Positions 45,000 through 45,267 of a stretch of 64,000 bases of DNA are shown here, piece by piece; the first letter of the stretch is position 1; each line of letters opens with the position of its first letter. The DNA comes from Eledone cirrhosa (Eukaryota). The stretch lies in NCBI GenBank assembly GCA_964016885.1, contig OZ024756.1:35278001-35342000 (forward strand), written 5' to 3'. A program made the translations under genes and the position numbers. The notes under the pieces are model-generated. The model saw nothing but the letters and a program-made list of their open reading frames with translations, searched no databases and was not told the origin of the DNA.

Positions 45000-45267
45000 T
45001 ATTGTGGGACTGTATGTCTCTTTTATTCTGTTGATTGCTCGTTTCCTTCGCATGGGCACCATCAATATGCATCCAACGATAATGTTCCGAGAGGTGCCAT
45101 TTGTTGACCGAATCCTCAAGCTGTCCCTCGACATATACCTTGTGCGTGAGATGCACGAGTTCCGCCTAGAAGAGGACCTTTACGCCAAACTCATCTTCCT
45201 CTACCGATCACCAGAAACAATGGTCAAATGGTCGCGACGCCCAGATGAAAACAAAAAGAACAACTAA
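45000..45267 (+). CDS. Piezo: Piezo terminal exon A (inner/pore helix + CTD: IVGLYVSFILLIARFLRMGTINMHPTIMFREVPFVDRILKLSLDIYLVREMHEFRLEEDLYAKLIFLYRSPETMVKWSRRPDENKKNN*)
   Basis: Long pyrimidine tract, ttccag|T acceptor in phase 2, intact ORF to TAA. Confidence 0.93.

Follow-up and report, generated by a model that had tools for sequence, protein, structure and literature searches.

Two terminal exons in an octopod Piezo gene

The window, the whole 64,000-nucleotide stretch of the Eledone cirrhosa genome that we analysed (contig OZ024756.1 of assembly GCA_964016885.1, positions 35,278,001 to 35,342,000), contains the 3' half of an octopod Piezo gene, closed by two tandem last exons that we call A and B. 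Octopus proteins are the best matches to this gene, and all features described here are on the forward strand. A tblastn search of the window with the Octopus vulgaris Piezo protein gave a single colinear run of exons (440 to 31867), followed by two terminal matches of the last 85–89 residues, at 44998–45264 and 53527–53778. The upstream exons are present as a single set (440..31165), and this search found no copy of them between A and B. Exons for the blade, anchor, outer helix and cap come in the expected order within the window, and the anchor exon (near 23259-23411) shows, in its translation against mouse, the conserved PFxxE...W motif with E2133.

The penultimate exon (31637..31866, where the start is the edge of the tblastn match) is shared. 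It encodes the end of the cap, finishing in ...GYG, and has a phase-2 donor, GG/GTACGT. Exon A (45000..45267; 88 codons and TAA) and exon B (53541..53793; 83 codons and TGA) each encode an inner helix and a C-terminal domain, and each is preceded by a pyrimidine tract and a CAG acceptor in the same phase. Both exons contribute the T that finishes the Gly codon begun by the GG of the shared exon at 31866, and the residue preceding I2466 (mouse Piezo1 numbering, used throughout) is this Gly, built over the phase-2 junction, and not Ser. A search of the whole 3.0-Gb genome with exon B gave two matches, which were A and B themselves. The two exons are 57% identical in DNA (137/240) and use identical codons for 16 of the 47 residues that they share, and we take this level of DNA identity to mean an old duplication, not an assembly echo.

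Poly(A) hexamers are present past both stops, in AT-rich DNA. The first AATAAA downstream of A is at 46642, and given use of this signal, a tandem array of about 26 copies of a 44-bp unit, 94% alike, that starts 190 bases past the A stop (45456..46568) would fall in the 3' UTR of A. Past B, an AATAAA pair at 57260..57278 is a candidate poly(A) site, judged from the hexamers, and earlier AATAAA hexamers occur from 55397. The introns and the region past B are filled with further microsatellite and minisatellite arrays, which is usual for such genomes. Exon A words occur in 21 public RNA runs, at 0.58–0.85 in three runs from one study and at 0.04–0.06 in the other 18. Four such runs aligned to exon B left the exon uncovered, from which neither use nor absence follows, and the same alignment gave a 41-base intron look-alike in two runs.

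The exon pair in other molluscs

Pairs of A and B isoforms with identical upstream sequence are found in seven other taxa: two octopuses, one cuttlefish cluster and four bivalves. We compared nine A/B pairs over the 500 residues upstream of the last exon, and eight of them, all same-species pairs, were identical at 500/500 residues. In cephalopods these are O. bimaculoides X1/X3, O. sinensis X2/X1 and two pairs in the cuttlefish cluster, which contains Sepia pharaonis models; in bivalves they are M. gigas X1/X2, C. virginica X5/X6, O. edulis X4/X3 and a pair in M. edulis. The ninth is a cross-species pair in Patella, with 206/500 identical when compared without gap alignment.

RefSeq isoforms are computed models, and both forms are also spliced in relatives. 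The cuttlefish cluster includes six assembled contigs of 8.1–8.6 kb with frames of 2,368–2,416 aa, dimensions that identify them as spliced transcripts; five of the six carry B and one carries A. The A end is also in the O. vulgaris transcriptome: X3 and X4 of that species carry it, and a supplement of PMC12919962 lists X3 among transcriptome contigs. Most octopus and oyster gene models carry A. Among long assembled oyster contigs, the A end was present in 5/5, and next to B in 5/6 of the cuttlefish-cluster contigs this hints that the predominant form differs by lineage or tissue.

In gastropods, A occurs in at least nine species and B in at least two limpets, and in several gastropods A is the only form among the matches listed. 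No gastropod species had both forms among these matches; for two clusters, with 23 and 25 members, the listing covers 15 each. In O. vulgaris, Mya arenaria, Solemya velum and Saccostrea cucullata, gene models read from A straight on into B, so the exon order in those species is the same as in the window. Such fused models, with two inner helices, are annotation errors.

Residue differences between A and B

Both exons align to mouse Piezo1 without gaps, starting at I2466, and are homologous to solved Piezo pores with E-values of 2e-27 (A) and 3e-30 (B). Models predicted for A and B in isolation (83–88 aa) match Piezo folds with TM-scores of about 0.60 (A) and 0.65 (B). In these monomer models the helix of A breaks at residues 21–25 and that of B continues to 30; we set this difference aside, as the models are partner-less fragments with a pLDDT of 54–59.

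A preliminary description of this DNA had compared the exons over the segment at 45019..45099 in A (mouse 2472-2498), where A has the pore-facing F2473 and L2476, G2484/T2485, N2487, T2491 and R2495. The mouse residue map that it listed is correct throughout by our alignment: positions 2475/2476 are L/L in A and F/V in B, 2478 is A in A and G in B, 2487 is N in A and E in B, 2491 is T in A and R in B, 2495 is R in A and M in B, and M2493, F2494, E2496, P2536 and E2537 are retained in both. Its further claim, of differences falling exactly on the gate and selectivity positions, we could not uphold. Of 80 positions, 33 are different between A and B, without enrichment at functional sites. The segment is somewhat more divergent than the remainder of the exon (16/27 against 16/47 positions, Fisher P=0.051). 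For 14 sites from the literature (2469, 2473, 2475, 2476, 2479, 2480, 2487, 2491, 2493-2496, 2536 and 2537), 6 differ where 5.78 are expected (hypergeometric P=0.56), and for the 11 sites of the preliminary description, 6 differ where 4.54 are expected (P=0.26, or P=0.45 within the segment). With a further counting at P=0.79, none of the four is significant.

Individual sites also read differently from how they had been read. The L/F difference at 2475 had been presented as a change of the gate, and the mouse L2475F mutant is reported to be near-neutral, with an inactivation tau of 10.2 ms compared to 11.9 ms for wild type (PMC6349400). The loss of two acidic residues had been proposed for A. 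A basic residue at 2495 does stand in A at the position of a mouse Piezo1 portal acid. E2495 is, however, missing from B too, where 2491 is Arg (an Arg that is also present in cnidarians and amphioxus), so the gap between A and B is one net charge and not two: over 2487/2491/2495/2496 the net charge is 0 in A, -1 in B and -3 in mouse.

We then compared types over a hand-picked row set with one row per species, made up of 23 A, 13 B and 28 outgroup rows and including the cuttlefish pair. On average, two A rows are 73% identical, two B rows 72%, and an A and a B row 57%. At 2473, 2481, 2484, 2485, 2489, 2516, 2526 and 2544, no residue is common to A and B. Position 2473 is Phe in 23/23 A and 0/13 B rows, and 2476 is Leu in 21/23 A and Val in 13/13 B rows; both belong to the four residues that PMC6349400 names as facing the pore. 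F2473 is not exotic, because it is found in 14 of the 28 outgroup rows and is common in cnidarians and arthropods. By alignment, then, the A pore face is F/L as in fly Piezo and the B face is L-or-M/V as in vertebrates. The pair F2484/F2485 is lost in all 23 A rows, with S, G or A at 2484. Human F2458 corresponds to mouse F2484 by an alignment offset of 26, and F2458L is listed among human disease variants (PMC7796548). Neither the pore-face Phe at 2473 nor the loss of F2484/F2485, which are the best conserved of the differences, was in the preliminary description. Two that it did include are less general. Glu at 2487, which it took as canonical, is present in only four cephalopod B and two vertebrate Piezo1 rows, and the position is Gly in 8/13 B and 16/28 outgroup rows, including Piezo2. 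By A-to-I recoding of the RNA, the Asn codon that A has there might be read as Asp. The Ala at 2478 is lineage-specific, in 4/23 A rows that are all octopods.

At the portal, position 2495 is basic in 18/23 A rows, 0/13 B rows and 0/28 outgroup rows. Oyster and Mytilus A do not have the basic residue (they have L or N), and oyster A combines Leu at 2495 with R/K at 2491. When 202 distinct segments are counted, 2495 is basic in 21/27 that have the strict A signature and in 5/175 others; of these five, one falls in the A group, two resemble A and two do not. The net charge over 2487/2491/2495/2496 is 0 in 22/23 A rows, -1 or -2 in 13/13 B rows, -3 in vertebrate Piezo1 and 0 in 3/28 outgroup rows. 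S2491, E2495 and E2496 are described as lining the lateral portal and lower fenestration, with E2495/6 bearing on selectivity, and neutralizing E2487 or E2495/6 is reported to lower cation selectivity (PMC7815867, PMC7796548). The cuttlefish-like A has Gln for M2493 of the MF constriction and Ser for P2536. B rows keep P2536 in 13/13.

Age of the duplication

We built a first tree from 64 rows and 80 columns and a second tree with 18 further rows and without four rotifer rows. A forms one group in both, with support of 100/99 in the first tree (23 A rows) and 85/85 in the second. In the first tree the B rows fall among those of deuterostomes and cnidarians (92/88), and because A is one group and B has this placement, we consider A to be derived and B ancestral-like. 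Identity to mouse Piezo1 is 70.5% for B and 62.8% for A, which agrees with the earlier suggestion that B is the more ancestral-looking pore. B as a single clade was not recovered in the first tree (18% of bootstrap trees) and had 68/76 in the second; 80 columns are too few for this. A grouping of A with arthropod pores is absent from both trees.

The A/B split may predate molluscs, judging from A-like sequences elsewhere. The tubeworm Ridgeia piscesae has two Piezo models on different contigs, one of them with an A-like helix (F2473, I2474, T2485). Ridgeia and several other sequences look A-like, but the branch support for this is 57/1 in the second tree. In Piezo models of the bdelloid rotifers Didymodactylos carnosus and Adineta steineri there are two tandem copies of the last exon. 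They group with neither mollusc A nor mollusc B in the first tree, where the first copy is very divergent, so the duplication there may be independent.

C-terminal tails

All complete mollusc tails end in KKxx or KxKxx, 21/21 in A and 13/13 in B, where we required Lys at -3 plus -4 or -5 from the C-terminus and left out fused first exons. In the window, A ends in KKxx (45253-45264) and B in KxKxx (53776-53790). Of 26 outgroup rows, 10 have the same kind of end; they come from cnidarians, echinoderms, amphioxus, an annelid (one row) and rotifers (two rows). The count is 0/4 for vertebrate and 0/10 for arthropod rows. The lysines keep a fixed distance from an end that moves, which points to selection for a terminal signal. 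KKxx/KxKxx is described as the pattern of the COPI dilysine signal (PMC3521961), and the mollusc Piezo end is possibly a COPI-type ER-retrieval signal that is ancestral in Piezo.

Comparison with known systems

The pore module of mouse and human PIEZO1 and PIEZO2 (PDB 5z10, 6b3r, 6bpz, 6kg7) has gap-free homology to both exons. Vertebrates vary the pore with two genes, whereas at this locus a single gene provides two pore exons. The portal differs as well: the four acidic-or-polar residues of vertebrate Piezo1 carry -3, compared to 0 in A and -1 in B.

Drosophila Piezo (PDB 9w7x) resembles A in having F2473/L2475/L2476/R2479 on the inner helix. Unlike A, it retains E2495 and an aromatic residue at 2484, arthropod rows do not group with A, and D. 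melanogaster has a single kind of last exon among the rows that we examined. Fly Piezo is reported to give small currents and to escape block by ruthenium red, properties determined by the C-terminal fifth (PMC4445471). The part exchanged in that fly/mouse chimera spans about 570 residues, so the fly properties need not stem from the inner helix. The fly comparison supports the direction of the prediction for A that we give below.

Isoforms that tune one Piezo gene are familiar from mouse Piezo1.1 (PDB 6lqi), from Piezo2 splicing and from C. elegans PEZO-1 isoforms G and K, and Szczot and colleagues (2017) reportedly found Piezo2 splicing to go by cell type. In known Piezo splice forms, the part that is lost is the lateral plug, an intracellular loop or blades at the N-terminus, and to our knowledge none of them swaps the pore-lining helix and CTD. 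Exon swaps in the pore region are known from the alternative 3' ends of Drosophila Shaker, GluCl alpha-3A/3B of nematode avr-14/gbr-2 and flip/flop of AMPA receptors. They are like mollusc Piezo in that duplicated exons alter the part that forms or gates the channel and leave the sensor in common; unlike it, they belong to other channel families.

Interpretation

We believe that this locus is one Piezo gene with two alternative last exons that yield channels with different pores, and we put the probability of this explanation as a whole at roughly two in three. We are close to certain of the exon model, with its shared donor and two alternative last exons. A real difference between the pores of A and B channels is probable on the residue evidence, and conservation of the pair in cuttlefish and bivalves means that one gene probably yields two differently behaving channels.

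In the mechanism that we propose, the terminal exon would have duplicated in tandem before cephalopods, bivalves and gastropods split, leaving A upstream as the derived copy and B downstream as the ancestral-like one. The donor at 31866 would join A, with 3' end formation within the 8.3 kb ahead of B, or it would join B and skip A. The blades, beam, anchor, outer helix and cap would be unchanged between the forms, and a single block made up of the pore-lining helix, the lateral portal's base, the cytoplasmic constrictions and the tail would be exchanged. A is predicted to have a bulkier hydrophobic pore face (F2473/L2476), a looser helix foot with a small residue and Thr replacing F2484/F2485, and a basic residue replacing the portal E2495. 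This could give A lower conductance, Ca2+ permeability or polycation block than B, and altered kinetics. Such effects on conductance, Ca2+ permeability or block are less certain than the choice of exon.

Some of our data would fit other explanations. Two terminal exons could also result from a duplication in the assembly, from an exon copy that is dead, or from two separate genes that end here, but this kind of artefact is already largely refuted and we give it next to no weight: the DNA and codon identity of A and B is too low, each has an intact frame, the stretch between them is free of upstream exons, and seven other taxa have the pair again with common upstream sequence. It is also possible, although we think it rather unlikely, that the exons are real alternative last exons with pores that behave alike, and that selection acts on which 3' UTR and tail are used (location and level of the mRNA, protein trafficking or partners). 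The changes are indeed not enriched at functional sites, R2479, R2482, E2496 and the MF site are kept in both types and E2537 mostly is, L2475F does little in mouse, and the tail after YRS has 15–28 residues in A and 13 in B. However, drift would not keep the pore-face positions 2473 and 2476 fixed by type over three mollusc classes, and the fixed differences are mostly in the helix and its foot and not in the tail.

In a further explanation, one of the two forms (A is the likelier) does not make a normal surface channel and tunes mixed trimers, as a subunit that conducts poorly, is modulatory or stays inside the cell. A lacks F2484/F2485 in every row, bivalve A rows are altered at M2493, F2480 and often P2536, and the dilysine is retained at the tip of the lengthened A tail. 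Against this, B ends in the dilysine just as regularly, and the prevalence of A in octopus and oyster models, in the long oyster contigs and as the sole form of several gastropods argues for A being a main working channel. We therefore consider a modulatory role very improbable.

Different pores from one gene remain our preferred explanation, and a more specific version of it is tentative and, in our view, somewhat doubtful. In this two-pore Piezo, A would be a charge-swapped, narrower pore with low Ca2+ permeability or relaxed cation/anion selectivity and B would be vertebrate-like, with cell-type-specific choice between them and mixed trimers (A3, A2B, AB2, B3). With the same degree of reservation, touch neurons, suckers and muscle might tune which ions are admitted and leave the force sensor unchanged. 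The two-pore pair may also be older than molluscs, given the annelid-like A-type sequences and the separate tandem pair of rotifers.

Significance

We found no description of alternative or duplicated Piezo pore exons in the full-text literature, in a search that had most subscription journals outside it. In the available text of PMC12919962, PMC12036646 and PMC11682238, Piezo appears only as a gene, a marker or numbered isoforms; the roles of Piezo in molluscs are called uncharacterised (PMC11682238), and PIEZO is reported as expressed in the octopus sucker ganglion, with isoforms not distinguished (PMC12036646). The A and B isoforms are already in automatic annotations, unremarked: XP_014782009/XP_052831049 and XP_011438487/XP_011438488 carry the two ends, labelled just X1, X2 and so on, and some assemblies fuse the exons into an impossible protein or retain one. 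What is new, as far as this search goes, is that alternative last exons exchange the pore of Piezo. The exon pair is real and old, and more general than the preliminary description had it, and the site-by-site argument given there is half right. The split between the mollusc classes is over 500 million years old.

Determinants of the Piezo pore are known almost solely from engineered mutants and mouse/fly chimeras. Two pore modules on an identical mechanosensor, kept over cephalopods and bivalves, are a clean natural swap of about 85 residues, with which direct experiments on conductance, Ca2+ permeability, block and inactivation are easily devised. As a caution, mollusc Piezo clones, probes and gene models stand for different channels, and some fuse both exons. 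The pair suggests a way in which animals that have one Piezo gene may gain a variety like that of Piezo1 and Piezo2, and it bears on touch and proprioception in the octopus sucker.
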